This document shows positions 46,749-63,278 of a DNA stretch of 64,000 nucleotides, piece after piece; within the stretch, counting starts at the first letter, position 1, and each line of letters starts with the position of its first letter. Both the position numbers and the translations under genes were made by a program. Below the pieces are notes generated by a model. That model was given only the letters and a program-made list of their open reading frames with translations. It ran no database searches and was not told the DNA's origin. The DNA comes from a virus (Duplodnaviria > Heunggongvirae > Uroviricota > Caudoviricetes > Schitoviridae), in IMG/VR virus record IMGVR_UViG_2974672511_000001, positions 12,919-76,918 of that record; one strand, written 5' to 3'.

Positions 46749-47018
46749 TTAGTCCTCCAGTAAGTGTATTAGGTTTACCTGCTCGTAAATATCACGTAAG
46801 GTTTCCCCATAGTACTCAGTATGTTCCCACCCAGGTGCTAACACTTCTTTCCGATGAGTAGGGTTTAACGACATCCTTATGTTTTTACCTGTAGGTTCAA
46901 GTAAGCGTTCACTGTTTAGGGACGAACTACTATCTAAAGTGAATTTGACATACAAATCACCCTTACGGGCCATGTATAGCGCCTCGCATTCATTAGTAAA
47001 TCTTAATATTCGCCACAT
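46749..47018 (-). CDS. small protein, C-terminal tag family member (...YYGETLRDIYEQVNLIHLLED)
   Basis: C-terminal 20 aa match the family consensus. Confidence 0.45.
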   Translation of the reverse strand: MWRILRFTNECEALYMARKGDLYVKFTLDSSSSLNSERLLEPTGKNIRMSLNPTHRKEVLAPGWEHTEYYGETLRDIYEQVNLIHLLED

Positions 47019-47356
47019 TAACCCTCCAATAGTTTCTCCGTAAGCCGGACGTTAATAGACTCCATTGCCTCAGCATGCTTCAGCTTCAACTCCATTGCCT
47101 CTTCTGGCTCATCCTCTTGAGGATTTACCACATAATCAGTTACAAACTGATGTAAAGGTTTAGGGAGTAAATGGTATAGAGCCTGTTTAGTATTAGAGGC
47201 TGTTAATACATCAGAGATGTACCAATGGATTAAACTATCTGTATGCACAGAACCAAACGTGGTACTAGTAGTTAGTACTTCCATGAGGGTCTGCTGAATG
47301 TGAAATTTACTCATAGGCGTCAGAGTATCCGACGGTACGTGTCTATGTTCTCGCAT
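47018..47356 (-). CDS. hypothetical protein (112 aa)
   Basis: ATGA overlap coupling. Confidence 0.4.
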   Translation of the reverse strand: MREHRHVPSDTLTPMSKFHIQQTLMEVLTTSTTFGSVHTDSLIHWYISDVLTASNTKQALYHLLPKPLHQFVTDYVVNPQEDEPEEAMELKLKHAEAMESINVRLTEKLLEG

Positions 47357-47372
47357 GACAGACCCTCCGGTA

Positions 47373-47633
47373 TTAGCCGATTAGTTCTTCAAGAGCAGCC
47401 ACTTTACGCGAAACTGAATCAAGCTTGTTTACACGAACTTCGAAGTCTTCTCGCATTACAGCAAGAATCTTAAGCTCAACACCTAGATCAGCATCTTCGA
47501 ATTGCAGAGATTCACCACCAGCGCTTACGGTTAGTGGTGCATGGCTGTGTACAACGTTTAAGAAGTTCTTAAGACCTTCTATTTCAGATTCAAGTTTTGC
47601 TTTAGATGCTAGTAGTTCTTGTAGTTTAGACAT
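47373..47633 (-). CDS. coiled-coil protein (86 aa)
   Basis: Heptad pattern. Confidence 0.4.
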   Translation of the reverse strand: MSKLQELLASKAKLESEIEGLKNFLNVVHSHAPLTVSAGGESLQFEDADLGVELKILAVMREDFEVRVNKLDSVSRKVAALEELIG

Positions 47634-47693
47634 TTGGTGTTTCCTTTTGGTAGTTTAGGCATTAGTGCCTGAATAAAATTAAGTGTTACTGGT

Positions 47694-47879
47694 TTAGCCT
47701 TGAGAACTACCTTCGTAGATAATCTCAAAACCATTGCTATCGATACGTACGTCAGCCTCTTTCGGAGTCTCGAACGAACATACAGTAGCGTTTTCTAGGT
47801 CAGCGCAGTATGCAGTAAAGTGGCTACTACAGCCACCAAGCACAAGTGCAGCACCTAGAACGGTAAGTGCTTTTTTCAT
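47694..47879 (-). CDS. small lipoprotein (61 aa)
   Basis: MKKALTVLGAALVLGGCSS: signal peptide with LGGC lipobox. Confidence 0.5.
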   Translation of the reverse strand: MKKALTVLGAALVLGGCSSHFTAYCADLENATVCSFETPKEADVRIDSNGFEIIYEGSSQG

Positions 47880-49069
47880 TAGTTGTATCCCACATCGAAC
47901 TCTATAATCGTCCCGAATTTAGGTGTGAACCCATGGCCCGGGAGTTTAACCCACACTACAGGGTAGTCGGGTTCTTCAGTAATCTCACGACACTCCAAGT
48001 CAGAAAAGACGATTAACACTAATGGCTTATTCTCTTCTTTATTGTAGTGATCAAAGATAGGTTCTAAAGCAGTACCACCACGACCATGGAACGTCACATC
48101 ACTTAAGTCATCACCTTTCGCAAGGTTGTAGATCTTATGGATTGAAGTATCACAGTCGATGATAGATAGCTTCTCAGGTTGGTTGTTTTCCATGATGTCA
48201 TCCAACTCAGTAATAAATGCTGAGAATTGGTGGTTCGACACAGAGCATGAGGTATCAACGGCAGCACCAATGTGGCCTAGGCTCTCAGAGAACAAAGACG
48301 GCAGGTACAGACCTTGCGATTGGTAACGACGGTTAGGCTTCTTCCATGAGAAATCTTCCTTATCGAAAGAACTCATGTAGTTCTGTAGGATCACATTCCA
48401 TGGTAGTTTAGGGTTAGTAAGGCGTTCGATAGATACCGCGATATCTCCAGGGATAGCCCCTGCTTCGCCTTTAATCTTCGCTGCAGTAGATGCTTTGATG
48501 ATTGCGTCTTCAACTTTACGTTGAACGTCAGCTTCATCTACACCACCTTTACCATCACCGTCTTTACCACCAGACTCACTACCCGCAGGTGCAAAGTCAG
48601 GTTGGAAACTAGAGTCCTGTTTACCTGGATTCTGCATCAAGTGGTGGAAGATCTTGTCCGAAGACCATTCTTTCTGGTCTTTGTACTGATGGTCAGCTAG
48701 GCCGCCTTGAATCATCTTGTAACCAGCATCGATTAACATGATGTTAATGTAGTGGTCAGTCGCCTGATTCCATACGTTGAAGTTATCTTTCTTAGTCGAG
48801 TTCATTCGCAACATGTGCTGGAATGCCACGTGCCATGCTTCGTGAGCTAGTAAGAAAATACGCTCATCAGGGCTAAGTGGTTCAAAGAAAGCAGGGTTCA
48901 CGTACAGATTTAGACCATCAGTACACGCAGTTGGACATTCGTCAGTCCAGTTAAACTTAAGACTGAATAGGATAGTGGAGATAAAGACAGAGCCTTTAAC
49001 TTGTAACAGACCGATCTTAGCTCGGTCGTACGCTTTCTGTAGTTTTGCATCTACTTTTACTGTATTCAT
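47879..49069 (-). CDS. putative metallopeptidase-like / vWA domain protein (DUF2201-like architecture)
   Basis: LAHEAWHVAFQH (HExxH) in the N-terminal half. AAVDTSCSVS MIDAS-like DxSxS and a vWA-like C-terminal half. Confidence 0.45.
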   Translation of the reverse strand: MNTVKVDAKLQKAYDRAKIGLLQVKGSVFISTILFSLKFNWTDECPTACTDGLNLYVNPAFFEPLSPDERIFLLAHEAWHVAFQHMLRMNSTKKDNFNVWNQATDHYINIMLIDAGYKMIQGGLADHQYKDQKEWSSDKIFHHLMQNPGKQDSSFQPDFAPAGSESGGKDGDGKGGVDEADVQRKVEDAIIKASTAAKIKGEAGAIPGDIAVSIERLTNPKLPWNVILQNYMSSFDKEDFSWKKPNRRYQSQGLYLPSLFSESLGHIGAAVDTSCSVSNHQFSAFITELDDIMENNQPEKLSIIDCDTSIHKIYNLAKGDDLSDVTFHGRGGTALEPIFDHYNKEENKPLVLIVFSDLECREITEEPDYPVVWVKLPGHGFTPKFGTIIEFDVGYN

Positions 49070-49070
49070 T

Positions 49071-49298
49071 TTACTCTTCCAATAGATTTAGTAGTTGTTG
49101 TTCCTGTTGGGGCTGTTCAATCGATTCTGCGTGACAGAGGAAAGGGTAATCACCTCTCACATAAACCGCTTCAGACTCGCGTAAGATTTCCAAACTCTTA
49201 TGTTCTAACCCGAAGAATCGTATCGTCCCGTCTGGGAATACGCATTTGTACGTGTAGTAATGTTTACTACCATCAGTTCTGGCGTGTATATCAACCAT
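49071..49298 (-). CDS. small protein (75 aa), C-terminal ...QQLLNLLEE
   Basis: Tightly coupled (ATGA-type overlaps). Confidence 0.4.
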   Translation of the reverse strand: MVDIHARTDGSKHYYTYKCVFPDGTIRFFGLEHKSLEILRESEAVYVRGDYPFLCHAESIEQPQQEQQLLNLLEE

Positions 49299-49570
49299 TA
49301 TACCTCCAAGAGTGAAAGCAACTTCAGTTCGTCAATGACTTCCTCTAGGTTGCCATAATGTGTTACGTTACCATCAGAATCCCGTGTAACATCCACACCA
49401 AACACACACTCGTGACATTCCATCTTACAGTTTACTTGCCCACTAGGTCTTTGTGTAGCTTTAGGGTTATGGACACAAACTTTACGTTCGCCTGCAACAT
49501 CCGAATCCATGCTTAACAGCATTGGTTTAAGATTTTCAAGACGCTTAATTGTGATTTCGTACTTATTCAT
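49298..49570 (-). CDS. small Cys-rich protein, C-terminal tag family member (...HYGNLEEVIDELKLLSLLEV)
   Basis: C-x-x-C pairs. C-terminal motif. Confidence 0.4.
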   Translation of the reverse strand: MNKYEITIKRLENLKPMLLSMDSDVAGERKVCVHNPKATQRPSGQVNCKMECHECVFGVDVTRDSDGNVTHYGNLEEVIDELKLLSLLEV

Positions 49571-49875
49571 ACTTCCTCCAATAAAGCGTCAAGCTTCTTA
49601 ATGTTGAATATCCCCATATGCTCTACCAAATGCATTGGTAGATCCTTACGCGTACGTAACTCCTTTTCCAAAGCAGTAAGTGCTTCGTCCAAGTAGGCAG
49701 GGTCACTAGTGTGCAGGTCAGGAGCATCTGAGCTGTCAGCCCATTCAGTGTTAGGGTAGCGAGCTTTCCACGCCATACGTAGTGAGTAGAATAGATGGGT
49801 TGTGGACATATGCGATATCCGCTTACCTGTACCCCATTTATTTACCCAAAGGAAATTTCCATAACTATCAAGCAT
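49567..49875 (-). CDS. small protein (102 aa)
   Basis: Coupled. Confidence 0.4.
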   Translation of the reverse strand: MLDSYGNFLWVNKWGTGKRISHMSTTHLFYSLRMAWKARYPNTEWADSSDAPDLHTSDPAYLDEALTALEKELRTRKDLPMHLVEHMGIFNIKKLDALLEEV

Positions 49876-50167
49876 CGGAATCCTCCAGAATGTCGTGTAG
49901 TTTAAGTTCCGCTAACGCATGGTCGATATCTCTATTAACCTTACACCCGCTGACCTGACTAAATAAACATCCATCACAATCGTTACTCTTGGTTACGTGT
50001 CGATAGGCGGTGGCTGTACTTACATCACCTTTACGGCAAATTGGGTTGCAGAAATTCAACTGAAAATAATCTGAATCCTCGGAGGTTTTTGCATCGCGTT
50101 CAAAAGCATTCATAACATGCATGAATTCCCTCACAGACTCTAGGGTCTTCAATACTTCTTTGCTCAT
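49868..50167 (-). CDS. small Cys-rich protein (99 aa), C-terminal ...HALAELKLHDILEDSDA
   Basis: Several Cys. Tag-like C-terminus. Confidence 0.4.
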   Translation of the reverse strand: MSKEVLKTLESVREFMHVMNAFERDAKTSEDSDYFQLNFCNPICRKGDVSTATAYRHVTKSNDCDGCLFSQVSGCKVNRDIDHALAELKLHDILEDSDA

Positions 50168-50218
50168 ATTTCTTACCTTGTGTTAGAATTACCAATATAT
50201 AACTATAAGGAGCTATAT

Positions 50219-51058
50219 ATGGCACATGTGAAAATTACAGCCGACGGACTGTATCCGTTAAATAACGGTATGAATACCAGTGAATCCACCATCTATGTAG
50301 GTGAAATCCCTACAGGAACTACTATCGCTATTGGTTTTAATGATCCAGATGGGAATTGGACTCCATTCCCAAGTGCAACATTAACTTCCCACACACCACT
50401 ATCTATTAGCCACGGGCATGATGTAATGCTCATTGCGCTTGCGGTAGATGTGTCTGGTGAAATTAACATTAGTACCAAGAAAGAAGGTCTTGGTGGCCTT
50501 GAAGGATTACTTAAAGTAATCGCTGAGAATACTACTCCAACTGAAGAACCAGAACCCACTTCAAGGGCTGTACTGGGTGGTTACACCCTAAGTTCCTTTA
50601 GGGTCAGTGAGGATATAACCTCACCCTCTTATCTTGAAGGTGTAGCACTTACTCCGTCTACTACACCTGAGTTCCAGCTAATAACTGACAGCTCTGGAGG
50701 TACTTGGATTAAGAATATCTCTTCGAGAGGAATCTCTATGGTAGGTGACTCCATTTGGCAAATAGCACAAGGTGCTGGTAACCGGGGAGAGTTTGTATTG
50801 TGGTCTGAGACCTCCACCGATGATGGTGAAACATACACTACGAACCAACTATCTCTACGTAAGAAGGTTATACTCAACCAAACAGCAGATAGCGTTGGAT
50901 TTCCCACAGGTGTAAATACATGGGCACCTGGCAGTTGTATCCGTTGGGCCATGTATAATAAACAGTCAGGTAATGTTGAGATTGCAGGACCCTCAGAAGT
51001 TATCAACGGTGAAACTGTTGAAGGTGTCTCTGTTTACTGGTACTTAACTGAAATCTAG
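50219..51058 (+). CDS. two-domain beta-rich protein encoded on the opposite strand inside the middle-gene block (function unknown)
   Basis: Start moved to the ATG at 50219 with AAGGAG RBS. Two domains joined by a TTPTEEPEPT linker. Only + strand gene between 25.9 and 64 kb. Confidence 0.5.
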   Translation: MAHVKITADGLYPLNNGMNTSESTIYVGEIPTGTTIAIGFNDPDGNWTPFPSATLTSHTPLSISHGHDVMLIALAVDVSGEINISTKKEGLGGLEGLLKVIAENTTPTEEPEPTSRAVLGGYTLSSFRVSEDITSPSYLEGVALTPSTTPEFQLITDSSGGTWIKNISSRGISMVGDSIWQIAQGAGNRGEFVLWSETSTDDGETYTTNQLSLRKKVILNQTADSVGFPTGVNTWAPGSCIRWAMYNKQSGNVEIAGPSEVINGETVEGVSVYWYLTEI

Positions 51059-51059
51059 A

Positions 51060-51323
51060 CTACTTCGTACAGGCATTAAAACTACCCAGTAACTCTCCAT
51101 CACGGTCATCGGATAGGTAAGTGTAACGTAAGTTGCAATTTTCTTGGGCCATCATGTACATTCCCCAGATTTGAGATGATTTCATATCTTCGGGACTGAA
51201 GAAGTCAGCTGTCCACCCTACGCGATGTCTAGGGTGGGTATGCATATAAGCAACCTCCGAACAGCCTTTCAGGTTAGTAGACACTTTAGGGTCCATGTAA
51301 TTAGACAGTCCTCCAATCTCCAT
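51060..51323 (-). CDS. hypothetical protein (87 aa)
   Basis: Convergent with the + strand gene. Confidence 0.4.
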   Translation of the reverse strand: MEIGGLSNYMDPKVSTNLKGCSEVAYMHTHPRHRVGWTADFFSPEDMKSSQIWGMYMMAQENCNLRYTYLSDDRDGELLGSFNACTK

Positions 51324-51373
51324 TGAGGAGAAGTAGTAAACATTTTCATGATTATCCTCTTAGCGGAAAGACC

Positions 51374-51769
51374 TTACTTTAGGCAGGCCTTTTTATTTTT
51401 ATATATACCGTAAGGCAACTTGCAGGACTTGATATAGACTTCGGGTGCAGGCAGAGTAAACAGGGTAGCCTCCTCGGGTATTGGACATTCAGTAGTGCCC
51501 AAATTGACAGGGCAGTCGTGGCGTGTCCATGCACCTCCCCGAACTTGTGCACACCCGTATCGTCTTGCTAGCTCCAATGTTAGCTCTACTTCCCTTTCAG
51601 GTCCGTCACACTCCTCTATATGGACAACCTCGATAGGTTTATGCAGTTTGGTCCACTTAGGTCCCGAGACTGTGTTTAGGTGGAGATTTATTCTCTGTTT
51701 GATATCGGTAGTGTACCCGATATACCAACAACCATCTTCTAGGCGGATAACATAAACGTATTTGGACAT
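51374..51769 (-). CDS. GIY-YIG endonuclease
   Basis: YVYVIRLEDGCWYIGYTTDIKQRINLH (GIY...YIG...R) near the N-terminus. 131 aa. Confidence 0.55.
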   Translation of the reverse strand: MSKYVYVIRLEDGCWYIGYTTDIKQRINLHLNTVSGPKWTKLHKPIEVVHIEECDGPEREVELTLELARRYGCAQVRGGAWTRHDCPVNLGTTECPIPEEATLFTLPAPEVYIKSCKLPYGIYKNKKACLK

Positions 51770-51834
51770 TAATTCTCCTTACAGCGGAAAGGCTGTGGTG
51801 GCGAGCTCCGCCTCGCCTCCGCAGTCTTGCAGCG

Positions 51835-52098
51835 TCATGCCATTAGCTCTTGCATTTTGATGTAGGCGATAGCTTCGTCAACAGTATCAAACCCACCGTG
51901 ATCAATTAAACCATCGAACTTAGCTATCTCAGACAATCCTAGAGGATTTGAAGGGTCATTGACTGCTTCTTCAACGCGTTTAACTACATCTGCGCGAGCA
52001 ACCCAGAAACCTAACCCTATTGAGCCTTCGATACACCATACCTTGCGGTATTCATATTCAGCATCATTAGGATCATACCACACTCTGAAATTAGCCAT
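51835..52098 (-). CDS. small protein, C-terminal tag family member (...GGFDTVDEAIAYIKMQELMA)
   Basis: N-terminus also resembles the members at 61128 and 57762. Confidence 0.5.
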   Translation of the reverse strand: MANFRVWYDPNDAEYEYRKVWCIEGSIGLGFWVARADVVKRVEEAVNDPSNPLGLSEIAKFDGLIDHGGFDTVDEAIAYIKMQELMA

Positions 52099-52156
52099 TA
52101 TTTAGATTCCGTGTAAAAAAGCCCATCCTTAGGATGGGCAATATAGTTAGTTAAGG

Positions 52157-52369
52157 TTAGTCTTCTTTAGTTTTAGTAACGATGCTGACTGACTCGCTGT
52201 TAATACCAATAGCTAATAGCAGACCCAGCACCACTAACACTGCTAGCGATATTGGCCATAATACTGCACCTAGTGCCACGTTAGGCCACTTCACCGGTTT
52301 ATCAGATGCTGAGACAAGTGCCCAACAGACTACTGCGTAAATTGCAGCTACGACTAAATAAGTACCCAT
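52157..52369 (-). CDS. small 2-TM membrane protein (70 aa) downstream of the SPFH gene
   Basis: Two hydrophobic helices. Confidence 0.45.
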   Translation of the reverse strand: MGTYLVVAAIYAVVCWALVSASDKPVKWPNVALGAVLWPISLAVLVVLGLLLAIGINSESVSIVTKTKED

Positions 52370-52371
52370 GA

Positions 52372-52572
52372 CTATTCCCCGTCTACAAGTTTAGAGATGT
52401 TTTTGCCAATGTTGCGAGCTTTAGTGATCTCACATTGACGTGCTTCTACTTCCGTGAGGATCTTATCCGCTTTGGCTGTAGCTTTTTCGTTCTTCGCTTC
52501 TGATTTCTCAACAAACTTCACGAGTTGACGCTGGAACCATGTGATACCAGCTAACAATGTATTTAAATTCAT
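52372..52572 (-). CDS. small coiled-coil protein (66 aa)
   Basis: Coupled. Confidence 0.4.
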   Translation of the reverse strand: MNLNTLLAGITWFQRQLVKFVEKSEAKNEKATAKADKILTEVEARQCEITKARNIGKNISKLVDGE

Positions 52573-52594
52573 AACAGTTCTACTATGAATATAA

Positions 52595-53542
52595 TTACTT
52601 AGTAGATGTTACTGGTACACCAAGTGTACTAATATCACCGTTAAGAATTGTGTGAGGCATCAAACCTTGAGATCTCTCTGCGAACTTACCTTGCACATCG
52701 ATACGCTTGTTCTCAAGGATCTGTGGAGTAAGTGACGCTGAAAGAATTTTGTTAGCTTCTGCGATCAGTTTGATAGCTTCTGCTTCACCAGTTGCACGGT
52801 CAACCATCGCCTGCTTAGCGGCAGCAGCCTCTGCGTTTACTCGGTACGCATCTGCATCTGCTGCTTCACGTTGACGGTTACCTTCACCCAACGCTTCGTT
52901 TTGTGCGATAGACGCGTTAGTTGCTGCAATTCGGTCTGCAGACTTACGCTCTTCTTCCGCTTGAATACGCTCTTGGGTTTTAAGGATTTGTGTCGCGATA
53001 CGAGGATCAAATTCAATGTCTTGGATCAACACTTCAGAAATGTTAATGCCAGTGCCTTGCAACGCTTCAGTCAAACGGTTGAAAGTGTTTTGTTGCATTG
53101 TAGATACGTTATCACTTTGTGCAAGTGAACGGCTATCTTCAAGCTTACGACCTTCATCACGAATGATTGAACGTAGCTGTTGGCGAAGCGTCTTATCAAT
53201 GTACTGAACGGCAGTACCGTAATCAGTCTTGATAGTTGGCGCCAAGTTAGCATCAATGTTGTACATGATAGTTACGTTTGCAGTCGAGTTAAAACGGTCT
53301 TGGGTAGGTAGATTCAGGCCGGCAACTTCATACTTGTCATTACGTACTGAGTAAGTATCGAATGACTTCATAGGGTTAACGATATGGAAGCCTGCACGCA
53401 GTACTTCAGTTTGATCTACTTTACCCAATAAGCTTTGAACTTTAACATCACCTTCTTGTACGATGGTGAATGAGTTTAGAGCCACGCCTACAGATAATAC
53501 TGCAGCGAGTGAAAGGCCAACTACTTTTAGAGGCATGTTCAT
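52595..53542 (-). CDS. SPFH / band-7 (HflK/C- or flotillin-like) domain membrane protein
   Basis: N-terminal TM anchor. SPFH core (EGDVKVQSLLGKV...VNPMKSFDTYSVRNDKYEV...). Long Ala/Glu-rich coiled-coil tail. Confidence 0.65.
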   Translation of the reverse strand: MNMPLKVVGLSLAAVLSVGVALNSFTIVQEGDVKVQSLLGKVDQTEVLRAGFHIVNPMKSFDTYSVRNDKYEVAGLNLPTQDRFNSTANVTIMYNIDANLAPTIKTDYGTAVQYIDKTLRQQLRSIIRDEGRKLEDSRSLAQSDNVSTMQQNTFNRLTEALQGTGINISEVLIQDIEFDPRIATQILKTQERIQAEEERKSADRIAATNASIAQNEALGEGNRQREAADADAYRVNAEAAAAKQAMVDRATGEAEAIKLIAEANKILSASLTPQILENKRIDVQGKFAERSQGLMPHTILNGDISTLGVPVTSTK

Positions 53543-53577
53543 TTGTTTTGGTTCCTATTACTATTTGGTTGTGTGGT

Positions 53578-56170: not shown

Positions 56171-56250
56171 TCGTGAGTGGGTGGATTCGAACCACCGACA
56201 ACTCCTTAGTTAAATGGTAGGAGCACTCTGACCGCTGAGCTACCAGGAGA
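56171..56250 (-). tRNA. tRNA-like element (possible degenerate tRNA gene)
   Basis: On the − strand: D-arm like tRNA-Arg (TAGCTCAGCGGTCAGAGT), perfect T-arm GGTGG-TTCGAAT-CCACC, 5-nt variable loop. The candidate anticodon stem CTCCT/AGGAG encloses a 12-nt loop and the acceptor arms do not pair, so no canonical cloverleaf. Confidence 0.35.
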
Positions 56251-56465
56251 GAATAGATTAATTGGCATAGTCCCCTAGGTTCACCGACCCAAGAGACTAT
56301 AACTATCAACCCAAAAGGTTAGTGAAGCCTAGGATTGCTCCCAATGGGAATGCTAGAACTCCTATGGCTTTAAGAAGTACCCAACCAGTTACTACACCGG
56401 CTGAAGCGATTTGAACGATGTTGAGTATCCAGCCGATGAAGGCCAGAAGACCAAGTATTTGTATA

Positions 56466-56810
56466 CTAACCTCGACGAATATATGTACGAATTTGAGCTG
56501 TACCATCTTGAATGCTCTTAGCATCCGCCAACCAACGGTAATGTGTATTCTTAGCGGTGTTAAAGAGTAAACGTAAGCTCTTACGCTCACTACGTGGAGT
56601 CATTGCGAATAACTCTGCATAAGCTAGTTTGAATTCTAAAGGAACACGGATAGCGCCTGATGGGTAAACGTACTCATCTTTCAACTGCACTTTAAGTGAG
56701 CTTGCGATACGAATACGTTGGATACCCGCACGGCTAGTAGTGCCTACAGCTTGCTTCAGTGATGTACCTGCGAATAGATCTAGTTGGTTTAGTTTCATTA
56801 CTGTATTCAT
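56466..56810 (-). CDS. hypothetical protein (114 aa)
   Basis: Preferred over the overlapping 56306..56590 membrane ORF because of its upstream AAGAAGAG RBS. Either could be real. Confidence 0.4.
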   Translation of the reverse strand: MNTVMKLNQLDLFAGTSLKQAVGTTSRAGIQRIRIASSLKVQLKDEYVYPSGAIRVPLEFKLAYAELFAMTPRSERKSLRLLFNTAKNTHYRWLADAKSIQDGTAQIRTYIRRG

Positions 56811-56824
56811 GTGATTTACTCTTC

Positions 56825-56986
56825 TTACTCTAAGGTTATTTTACGGAGACACTTGTAGCCTTTAGGTATGGCCATGTTTAGTGTCTGTGTCAGTGATTCA
56901 TGGTGGTAATGACAGATTCTTAATTCGAACCCATCAACAATTGATAGGGATGAACCCAACAACAGAAGGCTAATCATGCGCTTCAT
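56825..56986 (-). CDS. small signal-peptide protein (53 aa, below the ORF-track cutoff)
   Basis: MKRMISLLLLGSSLSIV... Coupled to the downstream gene. Confidence 0.3.
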   Translation of the reverse strand: MKRMISLLLLGSSLSIVDGFELRICHYHHESLTQTLNMAIPKGYKCLRKITLE

Positions 56987-57215
56987 GCCCTTGGTGAAAG
57001 TTCATAAACTTACCAATTACAAACGTATGGTTATATGGTTTACTCATTAGACTGTTCCTATACTTTTAGTCTATCTGACATTCCTGTCCTCCACTTAAAT
57101 TCTTCTCAAAGCTTTTCCAACCATCCCTAGAACTCTAGTAGAAGTAGACTATCTTACCTAGAGTCTTCTAAAATCCACTAGTGAACGAAGTGAATGCTTT
57201 TGATCTTTGTGTGCT

Positions 57216-57244
57216 CTTAAAAGAAAAAGGAGCCCGAAGGCTCC
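57216..57244 (-). terminator. intrinsic terminator (− strand)
   Basis: − strand reads GGAGCC-TTCG-GGCTCC followed by TTTTTCTTTT. Confidence 0.7.
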
Positions 57245-57246
57245 AA

Positions 57247-57468
57247 TTATAAATCTTCCATTAGAAGATGCATCTTGATGTAGGAGAGTGCTTCGCGGTA
57301 GGTGGATTCAACGCATAACAGATTACTCATATCTGGGGTGTCAACGTGATGTTTCTTATCTAGCTGTACCGAACGTTCATTGGACACTACCCACGCCCGT
57401 GTAGGAGGTGCTACCTCAAGTATTAGATACATGCTCGCCTGCGTTTTAGACTGGTAAATTTTAAACAT
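57247..57468 (-). CDS. small protein, C-terminal tag family member (...YREALSYIKMHLLMEDL)
   Basis: Family motif. Confidence 0.5.
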   Translation of the reverse strand: MFKIYQSKTQASMYLILEVAPPTRAWVVSNERSVQLDKKHHVDTPDMSNLLCVESTYREALSYIKMHLLMEDL

Positions 57469-57820
57469 TGTCCATTAACTCCAACATTTGAATGTAATCA
57501 CGTACGTCTTCCAAGGTTCTGAAGTAGCCGTGATGTCCTATTACTCTATGTAGCGTTAGTATTTGACCTTCGGGGGTATGTAATGCGTGTCTATTATCGT
57601 AGTTCCCAAAGTTGTTAGGTCTTACAGTACCGTTGTTGACTAGAGGGTCTAGTTCAGCTGCCTTAAGTATACGCGCTACCTTGTTACTTGAGGATATAAT
57701 TACCCAAGTGGTTCTGGTTAGATTGTACCGTGACTCACCTTCTATTAACATGAATCTTGCGTTATGCATTGAGTAAGTGCTCCATTCTATGTTGTCCATA
57801 GGCTTCAGCAAACGTATCAA
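57461..57820 (-). CDS. small protein, C-terminal tag family member (...GYFRTLEDVRDYIQMLELMDNV)
   Basis: Family motif. Start codon overlaps the stop of the upstream gene. Confidence 0.5.
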   Translation of the reverse strand: MIRLLKPMDNIEWSTYSMHNARFMLIEGESRYNLTRTTWVIISSSNKVARILKAAELDPLVNNGTVRPNNFGNYDNRHALHTPEGQILTLHRVIGHHGYFRTLEDVRDYIQMLELMDNV

Positions 57821-58025
57821 ACTCGCCTACGAACACTAAATTTCCTCTCGCAGAATTACGGAAGCCATTATCTATTTCGTATGCACAGGACTCATCTTTA
57901 GTATTTTTCCAGTAACCTAACTCATACTTAAGGTCTTTAGGTTCTTCATCTAACCACATAAATTTTACGGCATGTTTGATCGCATAACGGTTATCACCGT
58001 CATCCACCCACAGTTCATATTTCAT
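57762..58025 (-). CDS. small protein, C-terminal tag family member (...VGEFDTFAEAYGQHRMEHLLNA)
   Basis: Family motif. N-terminus MKYELWVDDGD resembles 61128 (MKYALYKDESD). Confidence 0.5.
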   Translation of the reverse strand: MKYELWVDDGDNRYAIKHAVKFMWLDEEPKDLKYELGYWKNTKDESCAYEIDNGFRNSARGNLVFVGEFDTFAEAYGQHRMEHLLNA

Positions 58026-58033
58026 ATCTTATC

Positions 58034-58060
58034 CTTAAAGCGGGGCACCGAAATGCCCCT
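58034..58060 (-). terminator. hairpin downstream of RNAPII large subunit gene (weak U-tract)
   Basis: GGGGCA-TTTCGG-TGCCCC on the − strand. Confidence 0.35.
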
Positions 58061-58065
58061 ATTGA

Positions 58066-59280
58066 TTAACAAATGCAGTATACGCTCTTACGAATGTATG
58101 CAGCCATTTCAGTCTTAGTTAGACCGTTACGTACGTTAGCGTACTCTTCCTCTTCGCCAGTTAGATCGCTGAAGATAGAGCTTAGTAGGTCAGACTCTGC
58201 TAATTCAGCTAGAATCTCACGGTAGTGCTCACGCATTGATTGCACATGGTTTGGTAGGCTCTTGAACGCATCGTGGATAGTAATCAATTCGAATGACTTA
58301 CGACTAAGTACATCATTGATTACTTTGTTAGCACGGTAGATCTCTTCGAAGCTAGACTCTTCGATATCCATCTCACATGCAGTACGAAGGCTCATTGGAG
58401 TAGATAGGTCGATTGGTTCAAGTGGCTTAGTATTAAGCATTAGGGCAATCTGACACTTATCAGCAATATCGCGTAGGTTGTAGCCGGTCACATTCTCAAA
58501 TGCAGTGTAGTTACAACGTCTGTGCATCTCACGTACCATGTACGCATCGATAGAGTGAACTACGTTAGCAGCTAGCATTACAGCATGGTCACGAGTACCA
58601 ACCTCTTTGAACTCTTGGAAGAATGTATAACCAAGTTCATCAACGTGGATCTCTTCCATACGTGAGTTAACCACACGAAGTACTACCTTGAATCCATCAG
58701 GAAGTCCCCAGATGTACTCTTCAGCTTCTGGATCCCACACTTCAATCAGGTCATTTCGTAACTCATAAGCCCCTCTAAGCTTCTTACTACACATGTAGTA
58801 GAACTCATCCAGTAGAACTGAACCTACGCCTAGTTCTTTCTCAGGCTCTGCTGTAGAGCCATAGAAGTACGTCATTAGAGCATTCTTAGCCATTGAACGT
58901 GTTAGTTCAGTTGCTGACTTAAGACCAGCAAGGATAGCTTTAAATGCTTCGGTATAGCAGTCGTAACGCTTTGAAGGGTCAATTAGGTTAGTCCATAGAC
59001 CACCAGTGTAACAACCAGTCAGGGCTGACATGATCTGTACACCAGATGTAGTTGAATCAAACTCAACCAAGTGACCAGAAGGTTTACCGGCTTGCGCATC
59101 ACGTAGAGCCATCACAGACTTCATGAATGCGATTGGTTCATCAGCATCCAGTATCATCTCTTCCAGTTTATCGATATTCTTCTCGGTGAACGCTAGACGC
59201 ATCTCGAACTCTTTCTTATCAAGACCGAAGTTGTTTGCTACATCAATGAATAGAGCTTGCTTACCATTTAACTTGATCAT
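58066..59280 (-). CDS. T7-like RNA polymerase, C-terminal (catalytic) subunit; N4 RNAPII gp16-like
   Basis: 404 aa. EFDSTTSGVQ (motif A), RSMAKNALMTYFYGS (motif B), ITIHDAFKS (motif C). Confidence 0.7.
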   Translation of the reverse strand: MIKLNGKQALFIDVANNFGLDKKEFEMRLAFTEKNIDKLEEMILDADEPIAFMKSVMALRDAQAGKPSGHLVEFDSTTSGVQIMSALTGCYTGGLWTNLIDPSKRYDCYTEAFKAILAGLKSATELTRSMAKNALMTYFYGSTAEPEKELGVGSVLLDEFYYMCSKKLRGAYELRNDLIEVWDPEAEEYIWGLPDGFKVVLRVVNSRMEEIHVDELGYTFFQEFKEVGTRDHAVMLAANVVHSIDAYMVREMHRRCNYTAFENVTGYNLRDIADKCQIALMLNTKPLEPIDLSTPMSLRTACEMDIEESSFEEIYRANKVINDVLSRKSFELITIHDAFKSLPNHVQSMREHYREILAELAESDLLSSIFSDLTGEEEEYANVRNGLTKTEMAAYIRKSVYCIC

Positions 59281-59325
59281 AATACTTTCCTATTTATGAG
59301 AGAGGTGCCGACATGACACCTCTTT

Positions 59326-59340
59326 AAACACGTAGTGTTT
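59326..59340 (-). promoter_or_regulatory. hairpin promoter candidate of the vRNAP type (6-bp stem, 3-nt loop)
   Basis: AAACAC-GTA-GTGTTT, preceded on the + strand by CCTCTTT. Upstream of the RNAPII large subunit gene. Confidence 0.5.
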
Positions 59341-59342
59341 GT

Positions 59343-59555
59343 TTAATTATCTTCCAGTATCTCTACTAGTCGCTGTTCTTGGTTTATCGGGTAGCTCTCA
59401 AGAGTAGCCACATCCCATGACATTTGGTAGTAGTCACAGTTCTCGTTCTTACATGAGATAGAGCTGTAGTCAGTATTAACTCCACTCTCACGTTTATGTA
59501 GCATGTCACCCTCACATATAGGGCATAGGTATTGCTTTTGGTTCGGTTCAATCAT
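59343..59555 (-). CDS. small Cys-rich protein (70 aa), C-terminal ...RLVEILEDN
   Basis: C-x-x-C pairs. Confidence 0.4.
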   Translation of the reverse strand: MIEPNQKQYLCPICEGDMLHKRESGVNTDYSSISCKNENCDYYQMSWDVATLESYPINQEQRLVEILEDN

Positions 59556-59781
59556 TCAATAAAATCTCCATCTCATATACAGGTAGAATATCGCCAACAG
59601 TGTCAACATCGAATAGGTGAGTACAGATTCCTATGGAGTACTCCACATCACGACCCCACCAACTACTAGGGTCGGGTACGTAACTTTCATTAGCTCTAAT
59701 AGGGTTGTACCACCATGCTTTATCGTTATGTACAAGTAGAAGCATACTACCCATATCGTTTATATACACACTAATCATCAA
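59548..59781 (-). CDS. small protein, C-terminal tag family member (...LFDVDTVGDILPVYEMEILLND)
   Basis: Family motif. Confidence 0.45.
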   Translation of the reverse strand: MMISVYINDMGSMLLLVHNDKAWWYNPIRANESYVPDPSSWWGRDVEYSIGICTHLFDVDTVGDILPVYEMEILLND

Positions 59782-60025
59782 CAGTCTCCAACATCTTGAT
59801 CATGGGTAATAGTTTTTCAAACTTTTGGTATCTACCGTCATGTCCTACAAACATGCACTTACCACAAGCATTTGTGGAGTTATTCCCGTATACGCAGTGA
59901 GTACACATGTTCTGACCACTCCCATCCATAGTGTTACGGAACAAGAGATTTGCATCATCTAAACGTCCAAGCTTAATTAACCACTTTAACATTTCTGATG
60001 CTGTTGGTTCTGTAGGGTCACTCAT
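59771..60025 (-). CDS. small Cys-rich protein, C-terminal tag family member (...GHDGRYQKFEKLLPMIKMLETVDD)
   Basis: Family motif. Confidence 0.45.
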   Translation of the reverse strand: MSDPTEPTASEMLKWLIKLGRLDDANLLFRNTMDGSGQNMCTHCVYGNNSTNACGKCMFVGHDGRYQKFEKLLPMIKMLETVDD

Positions 60026-60028
60026 CCA

Positions 60029-60202
60029 TTAACTCTCCAGTAGTTCATAGGTTTTAAGTAAGGCGATTAAATCGTCTAAGTCTTTATCAGTATTGAAAGG
60101 GCACTCACCGCATTTAAGGGTTGGGCAGGCTACTGACTCGCAGAGTGTATCTCTGCCAGTCAGTTCCAATACCTTAACAAGTGTAGGTATTTTAGAATCC
60201 AT
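60029..60202 (-). CDS. small protein (57 aa), C-terminal ...FNTDKDLDDLIALLKTYELLES
   Basis: ORF-track N-terminus overlaps the upstream gene out of frame. Start moved to MDSKIP, overlapping the upstream stop. Confidence 0.4.
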   Translation of the reverse strand: MDSKIPTLVKVLELTGRDTLCESVACPTLKCGECPFNTDKDLDDLIALLKTYELLES

Positions 60203-61124
60203 CCACAACTTCCTTAACATGCAGATCAACGATACTCTTACGGAACACGTCACCTTGCGTATTTGCATGGTAACCAGAAGCGTACTTACGTCCGCGCTTA
60301 TCAGGTTTATGTGCCATGTAGAAGCGGTTACCATTCTTAACCAAGTAGCTGTACACATCAGCAGAGTCACGCATGAACTTGTCATACTGCTCTTTACGCT
60401 TAGGGTCTTGCTTTAACTTCACTTGAAGCTTCAGCGGCAACAGGATTGAATCGGTAATGCCTTTAAGCATGTCCACATTCAAGCTGAGTGCTACACCATT
60501 AGCAATGTTCAATGTATCCAGACAGATATCACCATCGTGGTGGTTGAACTTACCTAGGATCAGAGATTTCTCTTCACCGGTCATGTACGGTGTACTACGG
60601 TTATGAGTAAGCATTGCAGGCTTGCACACCATAGGAGGAAGGAACATAGCACGTTGAATCAGTTGGCTCGTGGTCTTGCTTACTTCCCAAGGGTTAGTAA
60701 TGTACCAATACTCTTCAACAATCATCTGACCAGTCTCTTCGTCTTCAGACTCATACTCGCTATGCTCAAGGTCGAATAGATCTGCATCAGCCAGAACCAC
60801 TAACACACGGCAAGCCATTTCAATAGCGTCTGCCTTATCCATATTTCCATACAGGTGTGCTAGTTGACCGGCAATAGCGCTAATCAGCTCACGACGTTCA
60901 TCCAATGCCATTACTAATAGCATTGCTTCGTGTACCACAAGACTAGGCTCATCGCCTAAGTCCATATCATGTTCAGCACTCCAACGATATAGCGCCATTG
61001 AGGCTTCAAACATAACTTCCATTAGCTCTGAGTCACGTGCAATCTCGTTCTCTAAACGAGTACGGATGCCTGCTTTGCTCAATGAAAGTTCAGTTGCTAC
61101 TTGTACGTCTACGATATTTTTCAT
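60192..61124 (-). CDS. putative N-terminal subunit of T7-like RNA polymerase; N4 RNAPII gp15-like
   Basis: 310 aa in the early block upstream of the catalytic subunit. Assignment from N4-like gene order and size only. Confidence 0.4.
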   Translation of the reverse strand: MKNIVDVQVATELSLSKAGIRTRLENEIARDSELMEVMFEASMALYRWSAEHDMDLGDEPSLVVHEAMLLVMALDERRELISAIAGQLAHLYGNMDKADAIEMACRVLVVLADADLFDLEHSEYESEDEETGQMIVEEYWYITNPWEVSKTTSQLIQRAMFLPPMVCKPAMLTHNRSTPYMTGEEKSLILGKFNHHDGDICLDTLNIANGVALSLNVDMLKGITDSILLPLKLQVKLKQDPKRKEQYDKFMRDSADVYSYLVKNGNRFYMAHKPDKRGRKYASGYHANTQGDVFRKSIVDLHVKEVVDGF

Positions 61125-61127
61125 GGG

Positions 61128-61355
61128 TTATTCCTCTAATAAATGAAGCATTCTTAATGTATCTAGGGTATCAAACTCACCAAGAAAGGTGAGGACGGTA
61201 GGTTTAAACTCGTCGGTATGGTGTTTATCCTTGTTCCACACGTAGTGTAGATCTAGCTCGAAGTCAGCAACTGAGTACCAACATGCCTCGTCACCACATA
61301 CTACCTTGTATGGTGTTAATGGATCTGATTCGTCCTTATAGAGCGCATATTTCAT
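61128..61355 (-). CDS. small protein, C-terminal tag family member (...FLGEFDTLDTLRMLHLLEE)
   Basis: Family motif. Shares the GGTGAGTTTGAT core codons with the adjacent paralog. Confidence 0.5.
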   Translation of the reverse strand: MKYALYKDESDPLTPYKVVCGDEACWYSVADFELDLHYVWNKDKHHTDEFKPTVLTFLGEFDTLDTLRMLHLLEE

Positions 61356-61365
61356 GGTTTACCTC

Positions 61366-61650
61366 TTAGTCGTGGTAAGGTATATCTTCCATCAGTGCAA
61401 ACATCTCAATTGCACTCTCTAAATCTTCACGTGAATCAAACTCACCTAAGAATTCACACGTTGTTGGAGGCTGTACTATATTACTAAATGCGTATGGATC
61501 GCCCTTACCAATCAAGTACGCATCATACTGGTCTAACCACCTAGTGTTAAATGATTTGCTGTTACTGGCGCATATCAGAGTCTTGTTTGTAGCATATACA
61601 CGGAACTGCCTAATATAACTGTCCTTAGGTTCTAGGTATAATGTAAACAT
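61366..61650 (-). CDS. small protein, C-terminal tag family member (...FLGEFDSREDLESAIEMFALMEDIPYHD)
   Basis: Family motif. Confidence 0.5.
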   Translation of the reverse strand: MFTLYLEPKDSYIRQFRVYATNKTLICASNSKSFNTRWLDQYDAYLIGKGDPYAFSNIVQPPTTCEFLGEFDSREDLESAIEMFALMEDIPYHD

Positions 61651-61719
61651 ATTAACTCTCCGTTGATTTATTTATAGAACTATAAAAGAATGGCACACCC
61701 TAAGGCATGCCACGTATTG

Positions 61720-61992
61720 TTATGCGAATTTAACTTCGCCTTTTGGAGCATTGTCTACAACATGCACTGTACCAACCAGCTTGAATTCGATCGGTTCAGA
61801 ACCTTTCTCATCAGCAGCCATTTGAGCATTGATCATCATCTCGTGGATGTGCTTCTCAAGATGCATTGCCATGTCTTTAGGTAGACGGTGCTTGTTACCT
61901 TCCGTATCAACAACCTCAAGACGCAAGAATGCATCAGCAGGTTTGAAGTTAGAGTTAGTAGTTGCACGAGAAGTTGAAGTTTTACGAGCCAT
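61720..61992 (-). CDS. hypothetical early protein (about 90 aa)
   Basis: Start moved to MARKTS. Lies downstream of a hairpin promoter. Confidence 0.4.
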   Translation of the reverse strand: MARKTSTSRATTNSNFKPADAFLRLEVVDTEGNKHRLPKDMAMHLEKHIHEMMINAQMAADEKGSEPIEFKLVGTVHVVDNAPKGEVKFA

Positions 61993-62041
61993 AATATTGT
62001 ACCTATTTAAATTGAATTGGGGATGCAACAGCGCATCATCT

Positions 62042-62056
62042 TAAGCACGTAGTGCT
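62042..62056 (-). promoter_or_regulatory. hairpin promoter candidate of the vRNAP type
   Basis: AAGCAC-GTA-GTGCTT, preceded on the + strand by CATCATCTT. Confidence 0.5.
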
Positions 62057-62121
62057 TGATAACATTCTATCTTGGCATATAGAGGTGATTTAATGTGTAG
62101 GACACGCTCTTGATCTTTGTG

Positions 62122-62150
62122 TAAAGAATTAAGCACCCATAAGGGTGCTT
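62122..62150 (-). terminator. intrinsic terminator (− strand)
   Basis: − strand reads AAGCACCC-TTAT-GGGTGCTT followed by AATTCTTT. Confidence 0.45.
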
Positions 62151-62360
62151 AATAGTTTGTACTACATACGACAGAAGGCGTCATACATGTGAGTACGTCC
62201 GTAGAACACAGTTTTGTTTAGGTATACCATTAACTCTTGTACAGTAGAGAACTGCATTGATTGATATTGAATCATTACTTACCTGCCTTACGTTTAGCGT
62301 CTTGAATTGCCTTTCTAAGCTTAATTAGAGCTTCTTTACTATAGTTATTTAACATAGTAG

Positions 62361-62567
62361 TTAGCCCTTTAGTGCTTCAAGCACAGCTTTCTTAGTCATA
62401 CCAAACTTACGGCATACTACCGTTAGTTGCTTTTGATTACCTGACTGTACAGTATCACCACCAACACCATAGATACTTACAGTAATGCCACCATTGCGTA
62501 GCGATTGAACACGTACAGATTGGTTAGCTTGGTTAGTCATGCGGATTACTTTAGGGGAGATATTCAT
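62361..62567 (-). CDS. hypothetical early protein (68 aa)
   Basis: Compact ORF. Confidence 0.4.
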   Translation of the reverse strand: MNISPKVIRMTNQANQSVRVQSLRNGGITVSIYGVGGDTVQSGNQKQLTVVCRKFGMTKKAVLEALKG

Positions 62568-62598
62568 AGTTATTACCTTATTACTTTATGGGATAGGG

Positions 62599-62727
62599 TT
62601 AATTGAAGTCGAGCTCTTGCTCATCTTCAAATTGCTCTAGATCATCTACTAACGCATTGAACTCATCAAACGAGGTAGCTTGTGCAGTGATATTCTTTTC
62701 AGGTGCAGTATAAATAAACGAGTACAT
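62599..62727 (-). CDS. very small acidic protein (42 aa, below the ORF-track cutoff)
   Basis: AAGGAA RBS. Sequence MYSFIYTAPEKNITAQATSFDEFNALVDDLEQFEDEQELDFN. Confidence 0.3.
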   Translation of the reverse strand: MYSFIYTAPEKNITAQATSFDEFNALVDDLEQFEDEQELDFN

Positions 62728-62773
62728 CTCTATTCCTTATTAATGAGCACACAACATGTATGCTCTATTCATT

Positions 62774-62986
62774 TTAATCACGTAGTGATTCTTCACGTTC
62801 AGCACGTGCTTGCTTACGTTTTACTTCAGCATCAGCTAGCGTATCGACAGACTGTGCACCACATTCAATGTAGTGACAGATAAGACGGATGATGTTGTAA
62901 GGTAATTTGATTAGTAACCAGATGTTCATTAGCATGTTATACACTCTCTTTAGTGATGGTTTTAAAGGTCTCATGTGATGCATCAT
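62774..62986 (-). CDS. hypothetical early protein (70 aa)
   Basis: Compact ORF. Confidence 0.35.
   Translation of the reverse strand: MMHHMRPLKPSLKRVYNMLMNIWLLIKLPYNIIRLICHYIECGAQSVDTLADAEVKRKQARAEREESLRD
62776..62790 (-). promoter_or_regulatory. hairpin promoter candidate of the vRNAP type
   Basis: AATCAC-GTA-GTGATT, preceded on the + strand by CATTTT. Confidence 0.5.
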
Positions 62987-63278
62987 CCATGAGGTATTGC
63001 ATTTGTATCCACTGAGTCAGTTCATTAACGTCATTGAAGTCACCAATAATATGTATAGACTCTTCATTGAGGATATGACCACCATCAACAAACATTCTAT
63101 GGTGAGGGTCAGCTTCTTCAGTCATATATTTAAGCTCATGCAATATATTATTAATAGCACTTAGGGCATTTTCCACATTAGGTGATATACCACCTATCCA
63201 TGCAAATTGATCATGTTCTGTCAACATAGCTAATGATGTGCCTTCTCCGCAGTAAACATTAAATAAACGTAGCTTCAT
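62937..63278 (-). CDS. small protein with internal tag motif (...IIGDFNDVNELTQWIQMQYLMDD...)
   Basis: Family motif followed by a 17-aa extension. Confidence 0.45.
   Translation of the reverse strand: MKLRLFNVYCGEGTSLAMLTEHDQFAWIGGISPNVENALSAINNILHELKYMTEEADPHHRMFVDGGHILNEESIHIIGDFNDVNELTQWIQMQYLMDDASHETFKTITKESV

Follow-up and report, generated by a model that had tools for sequence, protein, structure and literature searches.

A conserved C-terminal motif, predicted to be helical, in a lineage-specific family of small early/middle proteins from marine N4-like phages

The early/middle region of Vibrio phage 1.097.O._10N.286.49.B3 (NC_049431) raises the question of why so many small, dissimilar proteins of a single genome should end alike. 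The window analyzed here, a 64-kb stretch of DNA deposited as IMG/VR record IMGVR_UViG_2974672511_000001, is identical to the last 64 kb of this marine N4-like phage (Schitoviridae, Pontosvirinae, Dorisvirus); window coordinates are record coordinates minus 12,918. The early/middle region lies on the - strand and is read from the right end inward, from gp98 to gp56. It encodes the N4-type RNA polymerase II subunits gp88 (60192-61124) and gp83 (58066-59280), and dozens of unannotated small genes fill the region around them. About 15 of these small proteins, encoded in tandem arrays by genes of similar sizes, have a common C-terminal motif of ~17 residues that is predicted to form an amphipathic helix and is referred to below as the tail. 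The general core of the tail is T-h-x-[DE]-h-h-x-x-[ILV]-[KQR]-[ML]-x-x-L-[LM]-[EDN]. An initial annotation of the window had listed at least 13 - strand open reading frames (ORFs) with this feature, designated here by gp number or by first coordinate. All 13 exist and end as quoted, and the family is larger, as it also includes 43878 and, weakly, 49071. Of the longer consensus given at that time, which begins G-x-F-D-T, the front half (GxFDT) is valid in only ~6 members. The size range of 57–119 amino acids is right at its lower limit (60029, 57 residues), while 57461 has 102 residues both as annotated and in its orthologues rather than 119. No family member has a known function, a Pfam family or a solved homologue. 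The family is mentioned neither in the pVa5 genome paper nor in the Schitoviridae papers covered by a literature search, and it appears to be undescribed.

The statistical support for the tail was assessed using a leave-one-out position-specific scoring matrix (PSSM), gapless and anchored on the Glu of the terminal L-[LM]-E, which was run over the 84 annotated window proteins. Against shuffled versions of the protein itself, each of the 13 listed members reaches p<=0.017, and the best match falls 0-6 residues from the C-terminus in every case except 62937, where it falls at 15 residues. To guard against circularity, an independent matrix was trained on 14 families from relatives that have no window orthologue. 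This matrix identifies 12 of the 84 window proteins at p<=0.01, as compared to 0.8 expected, and all of these matches are C-terminal, at most six residues from the end. An iterative scan starting from seven seed tails was also carried out over 199 proteins from the window phage and two relatives, at a threshold allowing 1% false positives per protein. The first pass gave 43 matches, 35 of them C-terminal, and the scan converged at 62 matches, of which 56 are C-terminal. Among stop-to-stop ORFs between 46 and 64 kb, tails scoring >=12 number 13 on the coding strand and zero on the opposite strand; in the family-bearing phages together, the counts are 80 of ~650 coding-strand ORFs vs 1 of ~1150 opposite-strand ORFs. 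Shuffled controls are empty, so randomized sequences do not yield comparable C-terminal matches, and chance or composition as the source of the tail is ruled out by the shuffles, the opposite-strand ORFs and three other Schitoviridae genomes (below). Much of the information in the motif is held by L-[LM]-E. After removal of the last three columns, only three to six members are individually significant (51835, 57461 and 57762; also 57247, 59771 and 61128), and the best match of the other members is still found in the correct register. The proposal of a genuine conserved module at the protein level is thus borne out by the scores of all 13 members and by the codon-position analysis described below.

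The phylogenetic range of the tail was examined by counting ORF tails that score >=12 on the coding and opposite strands of related genomes. On the coding strand there are 18 in 1.026.O (Nahantvirus), 23 in pVa5 (Galateavirus), 7 in a related, partial Logan contig, and 10 and 8 in the Fuhrmanvirinae phages pYD6-A and VBP47, respectively; none of these genomes has one on the opposite strand. In pVa5 at least 23 of ~62 early/middle genes carry the tail, and the window phage has 15 copies. Three other members of the Schitoviridae, phi50-12, D517 and U1G, have packed, overlapping small genes as in the window, yet have zero tails on either strand. Recurrent ends of a different kind are found in two of these genomes. 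The small early genes at 1898-10324 of phi50-12 end in [FL]-[DTN]-I-I-[LM]-[IE]-K-E or IIMEKPND, have an MKxLxxI N-terminus in common as well, and encode their terminal K-E with the Shine-Dalgarno (SD) sequence AAGGAG, while genes at 2228-4541 of D517 end in L-K-I-x-C-L-L-[WH]-G. Neither end matches the window motif.

Database searches return little beyond this lineage. A profile of 54 sequences retrieved five proteins from a large protein database, and an exhaustive HMMER search with a profile of the class I members (defined below) retrieved 18, of which 13 are small proteins of the same phage lineage; the other five, all long repeat proteins (Ig-like, VWA, TSP3), are regarded as spurious. 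Pfam gave no match at E<=1 for 10 full-length members or 40 tails, and a profile of the 40 tails found no match among PDB sequences (best E 0.48), such that the tail does not correspond to the end of a known, ubiquitous domain in either resource. In the PHROGs library, gp90, gp81 and gp86 match phrog_25095, phrog_29903 and phrog_29072, respectively, end to end. PHROGs holds these three families of unknown function to be unrelated, and no model in the library captures the tail that the three proteins have in common.

The tail could also be a by-product of nucleotide constraints at gene junctions rather than a protein feature. Candidate constraints are the SD sequence, a start codon that overlaps the tail, mRNA that must stay AU-rich or unstructured for re-initiation, and a recombination linker. 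Comparison of non-orthologous tails within one genome distinguishes between these levels. Relative to a random expectation of 0.255, identities at codon positions 1, 2 and 3 are 0.38, 0.60 and 0.31 in the window, 0.36, 0.59 and 0.34 in pVa5, and 0.37, 0.59 and 0.31 in 1.026.O. At 15 of the 17 codons, third-position identity stays close to random (0.24-0.35); the two exceptions, where it is higher, are codon -5 (ATG) and codon -1 (xTG). Identity at the second position reaches 0.6-1.0, and Leu codons vary freely among paralogous tails. Conservation at the nucleotide level across the whole segment is therefore not observed. Codon -1 favors G at its third position (identity 0.51-0.71), as a junction constraint would predict.

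The next start codon was also mapped for every member. Where genes overlap by 8 nt, an SD sequence (ATGGAG or TTGGAG) sits at motif positions -5/-4 or -4/-3 and the overlapping ATG dictates the final [DN]-[DEVA] (xAT Gxx TRR). At junctions ranging from a 1-nt overlap to a 3-nt gap, the SD sequence xTGGAG sits at positions -1/0 instead. In-frame GGAG is contained in the tails of 9 of the 15 window members; of the 54 members in three genomes for which the next start was mapped, 37 have it. In those nine window members, GGAG or GAGG is placed 5-13 nt upstream of the next start, inside the last codons. The six uncoupled window genes (43878, 46749, 51835, 57247, 61366 and 62937) nevertheless retain L-[LM]-E, mostly as ATG GAA without GGAG; over the three genomes taken together, 17 uncoupled members do so. 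In coupled window genes that do not belong to the family, the end is simply ...AE, ...VE, ...GE or ...KEQYK. The last two to four codons are thus shown to be dual-coding, as they also provide the GGAG of the next gene and/or its overlapping ATG. However, the occurrence of the SD sequence at two different positions within one amino acid motif, together with the presence of the motif where there is no SD sequence, indicates that SD coding accounts for the very end only. It is not responsible for the 13-15 residues upstream, in agreement with what was initially proposed.

Two further observations bear on a DNA-level origin. The DNA core that had been noted in adjacent paralogues, GGTGAGTTTGAT, is present without change in 61128 and 61366; 51835 and 57762 each differ from it at one position. 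Recent gene conversion or a DNA-level recombination linker was rejected, as third positions are random and only this 12-nt core is common to two adjacent genes. At 17556-17729 of 1.026.O, a 57-residue orthologue of the 87-residue protein encoded at 57762-58025 has lost its middle, including GEFDT, and keeps only the N-terminal strands and the last ~10 residues (HEMESLLNV), with the SD sequence and overlapping ATG of the next gene. This natural internal deletion fits a junction constraint, as does the small number of members that remain individually significant without L-L-E. A nucleotide-level origin of the whole motif is nonetheless very improbable given the near-random third positions, the uncoupled members and the zero matches in the identically organized arrays of phi50-12, D517 and U1G; for positions -16 to -2, it is largely refuted by the codon-position analysis and the uncoupled members. 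The arrangement resembles known SD/start dual coding with translational coupling (1-, 4- and 8-nt overlaps) in the last two to four residues ([LM]-E-[DEGSV] or [ND]-x), in the GGAG 5-13 nt before the next start or the overlapping ATG, and in the G bias at codon -1. It differs from plain SD dual coding in its 13-15 upstream residues, which show codon-periodic conservation of the protein type and are also present in uncoupled genes. A search of the literature on C-terminal bias from embedded SD sequences found nothing directly usable. The tail is consequently a protein-level motif of a lineage-specific multigene family.

Inspection of all members reveals at least two N-terminal architectures. 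Class I comprises 61128, 61366, 57762, 57461, 57247, 51835, 62937, 59548 and probably 46749, and has the layout M-x-h-x-[LI]-[YWF], a D/E/G-rich turn, a second hydrophobic strand, a conserved Trp, a variable insert, and the tail strand and helix. Class II comprises 49298, 49868, 59771 and 60029, and has an N-terminal helix followed by CxxC...CxxC-h-F and the tail. The earlier description of the N-termini as unrelated is accurate in so far as more than one architecture exists, but is overstated, as the members fall into two classes. The accompanying statement that all but three members share only the tail does not hold, as the N-terminal beta-meander pattern MxhxLY...Y.hh...W is found in at least nine window members and the predicted structure of 61128 matches independently predicted models of paralogues.

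The structure of gp89 (61128) was predicted with AlphaFold2 (AF2) from an alignment of window paralogues (predicted local distance difference test score, pLDDT, 80.2; predicted template modeling score, pTM, 0.69). The model has the topology b-b-b-a-a-b-a, with strands at residues 3-8, 16-20 and 23-27, helices at 30-33 and 36-43, a strand at 55-61 and a helix at 64-74. The tail corresponds to this last strand and helix, which are the final elements of a compact domain in the model, and the idea of a freely appended tag is not consistent with this placement. A Foldseek search of the model against PDB gave no match (best E 1.4). Foldseek matches in BFVD are the orthologue of gp89 itself, two paralogues in pVa5 (E 4e-3 with TMq 0.68, and E 5e-3 with TMq 0.59) and a number of small pYD6-A and VBP47 proteins (TMq 0.57-0.69, 11-20% identity), with identities of 11-23% over the paralogues and the pYD6-A/VBP47 proteins overall. 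These matches support a common class I fold, with the caveat that Foldseek also uses sequence. Conservation between orthologues (window phage or 1.026.O vs pVa5) is 58% identity in the tail and 51% in the body. It is the pattern of the tail that is conserved rather than its exact sequence, and so slight an excess over the body is more readily explained by a structural pattern than by a specific interface. A helical wheel shows two hydrophobic faces, one made of positions -14, -11/-10, -7 and -4/-3 and the other of positions -8, -5, -2 and -1, the latter next to a conserved K/Q/R at -6. One of the two must pack on the domain, and the other may be exposed or, in class I, covered by the two short helices.

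Based on these results, the tail is probably, on balance, a conserved C-terminal structural element of an expanded, lineage-specific set of proteins, whose end codons also encode the initiation signals of the next gene. The tail would consist of a short strand, an N-capped turn (T/S-x-x-E) and an amphipathic helix of 15-17 residues. The set of small proteins would have expanded through duplication in the marine N4-like Pontosvirinae and Fuhrmanvirinae and diverged fast, giving at least two architectures: a three-stranded beta-meander, variable insert, last strand and helix in class I, and a helix, zinc ribbon and helix in class II. The AF2 model and the conservation pattern suggest that the hydrophobic positions of the helix (-14, -11/-10, -7, -5, -2, -1) close a small hydrophobic core. 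In the tightly packed arrays, the end codons are biased to xTG-GAG (L/M-E) or xAT-Gxx ([ND]-[DEVA]) before the stop. Finally, the variable N-terminal and middle parts would carry the specificity of each paralogue, presumably in host take-over or anti-defence, to judge from the early position of the genes.

Several results weigh against this structural reading. When the tails are removed, jackhmmer joins only orthologues and does not link the N-termini of different families. The best N-terminal-only hhalign probability is 43%, for 49298-49868 (52 columns) and 59771-60029, both pairs within class II; within class I such probabilities do not exceed 8%, and nothing links the two classes. Weak but collinear hhalign matches are seen for 61366-57247 and 61128-57762, and significant whole-length similarity between members, as a single paralogous family would show, is not observed. 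Tail similarity is only slightly lower between classes than within them, with mean BLOSUM62 sums of 15.1 between classes vs 18.4 and 19.9 within, as compared to -17.7 +/- 8.8 for random internal 17-mers, and simple paralogy does not obviously explain such near-equal similarity across two architectures. In addition, the AF2 alignments are shallow and built from paralogues, and the model of the class II protein gp66 has low confidence (pLDDT 63, pTM 0.38) and looks different from class I, in that a small sheet is set between two long helices, one N-terminal and one C-terminal (residues 74-98). The C-terminal half of the tail helix is also hydrophobic on two faces (-7 and -4/-3; -8, -5, -2 and -1), and two such faces next to a conserved basic residue at -6 would suit an exposed binding surface.

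In a different explanation, the tail is a portable interaction helix that docks many small proteins onto one common partner through a face made of M/L(-5), L(-2) and L/M(-1), flanked by K/Q(-6) and the acidic end. Candidate partners include a host hub, the phage RNA polymerase II machinery, and other family members in homo- or hetero-oligomers. Besides the occurrence of the tail on at least two N-terminal architectures with near-equal similarity between and within classes, and its two hydrophobic faces, such docking would account for its persistence in the six window genes that are free of SD constraint, its retention across two phage subfamilies, the conservation of polar K(-6) and E/D(-12), and the fact that 20-25% of genes in early/middle regions of the pVa5 type carry it. 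However, the tail is part of a compact fold in the sole confident model, orthologue conservation barely exceeds that of the body, the conserved positions are mostly hydrophobic residues of the core type, and no partner is known and no matching motif class is found in Pfam or PDB. Elsewhere in the Schitoviridae the recurrent ends are quite different, such as the strand-like FDIILIKE of phi50-12, whose members are plainly whole-length paralogues, suggesting family ancestry rather than a tag and favoring ancestry plus junction constraints as the general cause. Docking is therefore a tentative and rather unlikely explanation, although the structural and docking readings are not mutually exclusive. 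A bolder version is more doubtful still: a portable helix with an LxxLL-like face (M-5, L-2, L-1) and K-6 would be carried by more than one fifth of the early/middle proteins of marine N4-like phages on at least two unrelated folds, these proteins would converge on one host or phage hub or co-assemble, and FDIILIKE (phi50-12) and LKIxCLLWG (D517) would be lineage-specific equivalents. A degron or tag of the ssrA type, which would place a small or non-polar end at the very C-terminus, is not what is seen, as the tails end in acidic or polar residues. Moreover, 6 residues follow the motif in 61366, 15 in 62937 and 17 in pYD6-A 3019-3303, arguing against any signal that needs a free C-terminus; the degron suggested by the initial annotation is consequently unlikely to be of this type.

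The junction between the tail strand and helix also invites comparison with known small domains, and the proteins could be diverged AP2-like or HicB/UPF0150-like domains (a three-stranded sheet and a helix) with DNA-binding or antitoxin-like roles. The 'hhGxFdTxeEA' stretch resembles the strand 3-helix junction of AP2 (PF00847, 'WLGtFdTaEEAA') in G-x-F-x-T-x-[DE]-E-A followed by an amphipathic helix. The window genome also encodes HNH endonucleases with AP2-like C-termini (g38309, g27909 and g26685) that score on the front half of the PSSM, two of which (g26685 and g27909) are sub-threshold AP2 matches. HicB (GETLEEAL..A.EL.LE) bears a resemblance as well. Profile-profile alignment of class I with the AP2-like regions of the phage itself gave 18% probability (E 0.0013) over only 16 columns, confined to the G-x-F-d-T-x-e-A junction. 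The Pfam searches above returned neither domain, the Foldseek search against PDB did not reach significance, no fold of the AP2, integrase-arm or HicB type came up in the structure searches, and the predicted topology has an extra helix pair with its last strand apart from the first three, rather than a three-stranded sheet and C-terminal helix superposable on AP2 or integrase-arm domains. The AP2 and HicB leads are thus not supported, and a relationship of this kind is highly improbable.

Tandemly expanded families of paralogous small early genes are a known kind in phage genomes. The closest parallel is the MKxLxxI...FDIILIKE array of phi50-12, which likewise consists of head-to-tail early/middle genes for proteins of 55-115 residues with stop/start overlaps; arrays of this type also have conserved termini, variable middles and a lineage-specific distribution. 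The window family differs in that only its C-terminal helix is recognizable across all members and is found on at least two architectures, and in its copy number, which is unusually high for a tandem early-gene family. Functional analogues include the N-terminal capsid-targeting sequence of T4 internal proteins and the C-terminal signals of type IV secretion effectors. In these systems a short terminal sequence is similarly carried by many dissimilar small proteins of one genome; however, a receptor has been demonstrated for those signals, which lack structure or are cleaved off, while the tail is predicted to be a packed helix, has no known receptor, tolerates 6-17 extra C-terminal residues, and belongs to early/middle products rather than virion cargo.

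The individual members, all on the - strand, illustrate how tail and junction are combined. Among the class I genes, gp89 (61128..61355, 75 residues; tail 61134-61184, LGEFDTLDTLRMLHLLE) has the SD sequence GAGGAA within its L-E-E codons, and the next ATG is 3 nt past the stop. The neighboring gp90 (61366..61650, 94 residues; tail 61387-61437, DSREDLESAIEMFALME) continues for 6 residues, DIPYHD, past the motif; the SD sequence of the next gene lies past the stop, so the tail of gp90 is not SD-coded. In gp82 (57762..58025, 87 residues; tail 57768-57818, DTFAEAYGQHRMEHLLN), which is significant even without the last three motif columns, an 8-nt overlap with the next gene places the SD sequence ATGGAG at M(-5)E(-4), and the overlapping ATG forces the terminal N-A. 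The SD sequence TTGGAG is at L(-4)E(-3) in gp81 (57461..57769, 102 residues; tail 57470-57520, RTLEDVRDYIQMLELMD), which has orthologues in pVa5 and pYD6-A. The tail of gp80 (57247..57468, 73 residues; tail 57256-57306, STYREALSYIKMHLLME) ends in the codons CTA ATG GAA, without GGAG, and the gene is uncoupled, as an intrinsic terminator hairpin and a 436-nt gap lie downstream. This terminator-like hairpin, at ~57222-57245 (-) right after gp80, has the form GGAGCC-ttcg-GGCTCC followed by TTTTT. The gp80 orthologues in 1.026.O and pVa5 also have it downstream, and a transcription unit within the small-gene array ends at this point.

The best match to the motif is gp70 (51835..52098, 87 residues; tail 51838-51888, DTVDEAIAYIKMQELMA), an uncoupled class I member with a 65-nt gap downstream, no GGAG in its tail, and only two homologues in a search of 5.8 billion proteins. 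A conserved intergenic hairpin, GGCGAG-gcggag-CTCGCC, lies downstream of gp70 at ~51795-51825 (-) and shows a compensatory change in pVa5 (GGCGGG...CCCGCC), with an unremarkable fold z-score of -0.9. With no T-run directly behind it, this hairpin may serve in regulation or as a promoter element and not as a terminator. In gp96 (62937..63278, 113 residues; tail 62985-63035, NDVNELTQWIQMQYLMD), the motif is followed by 15 residues and is likewise internal in the orthologues P0003, P0012, P0016 and P0023. Two further members are weak, namely gp85 of class I (59548..59778, 76 residues; tail 59554-59604, DTVGDILPVYEMEILLN), once its LLx end is taken off, and the class I-like gp58 (46749..47018, 89 residues; tail 46755-46805, ETLRDIYEQVNLIHLLE), once its LLE is taken off. 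The former shares 8 nt with the next gene and has the SD sequence ATGGAG at M(-5)E(-4). The latter is 65 nt (gap 46684-46748) from the DNA polymerase gene, which is annotated with a TTG start. In the related metagenomic Logan contig L008 (13206-16080), the polymerase is called 21 codons longer and begins 1 nt past the orthologous small gene; the uncertain polymerase start makes the coupling status of gp58 uncertain.

The class II genes encode the helix and CxxC...CxxC zinc ribbon. In gp64 (49298..49570, 90 residues; tail 49304-49354, GNLEEVIDELKLLSLLE) the SD sequence TTGGAGG is at L(-1)E(0), with a TAATG overlap with the next gene, and in gp87 (60029..60202, 57 residues; tail 60035-60085, KDLDDLIALLKTYELLE) the SD sequence CTGGAGAG occupies the same L(-1)E(0) position, with the next ATG 3 nt past the stop. 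The tail of gp66 (49868..50167, 99 residues; tail 49883-49933, RDIDHALAELKLHDILE) is followed by DSDA. An 8-nt overlap with the next gene is present in gp86 (59771..60025, 84 residues; tail 59777-59827, QKFEKLLPMIKMLETVD), for which p=0.013 with all columns, 0.003 without the last three, and 0.098 under independent training. Outside the range first described, gp56 (43878..44153, 91 residues; tail 43887-43937, KEMKLISDYHKMADILE) is an additional member with p=0.002 under independent training; it is uncoupled (85-nt gap), and its tail is kept in the L008 orthologue. The borderline gp63 (49071..49298, 75 residues, ending …EQQLLNLLEE) has a score of 14.4 and p ~0.05 under independent training, its match is confined to the LLNLLEE end, and the SD sequence GGAAGAG lies within its L-E-E codons. 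Three other ORFs, 47018, 49567 and 59343, have only an LLE-type end in common with the family.

Other features of the window were also noted. A group I intron at 42648-42871 (-) (Rfam RF00028, 91.7 bits) overlaps the 3' end of an HNH endonuclease ORF (42658-43314) and is flanked by short fragments annotated as thymidylate synthase (42175-42399 and 43368-43583), an arrangement suggestive of thyX being interrupted by an intron that encodes a homing endonuclease. A borderline tRNA-like match at 56179-56243 (-) (RF00005, 30.2 bits vs a gathering score of 29) lies in the 409-nt gap after an ATPase gene; ARAGORN makes no tRNA call there, and the equivalent region of relatives contains oddly annotated tRNAs. 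Finally, an 80-residue HNH-annotated ORF at 38309-38551 (-) ends in ...EVLNRVKHT, and the upstream NrdD-like gene at 38745-40604 (-) ends in ...EVLNRVKHTEGRGAVGRLP. This common end looks like a duplicated exon terminus left by the insertion of a mobile endonuclease gene.

From the DNA polymerase gene to the early end of the window genome, about one gene in three belongs to the tail-bearing family, whose share is similar or larger in the genomes of relatives. The locus provides a clean natural example of an embedded ribosome-binding site that shapes, but does not create, a conserved protein terminus. Recognition of these proteins as a motif-linked set offers a handle on host take-over by N4-like phages, as one profile finds all members, the two architectures are open to structural sampling, and the conserved helix can serve as a target for deletion, swap and pull-down experiments. 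If the helix is indeed a common docking element, it would represent a new phage route for addressing many effectors to one hub.

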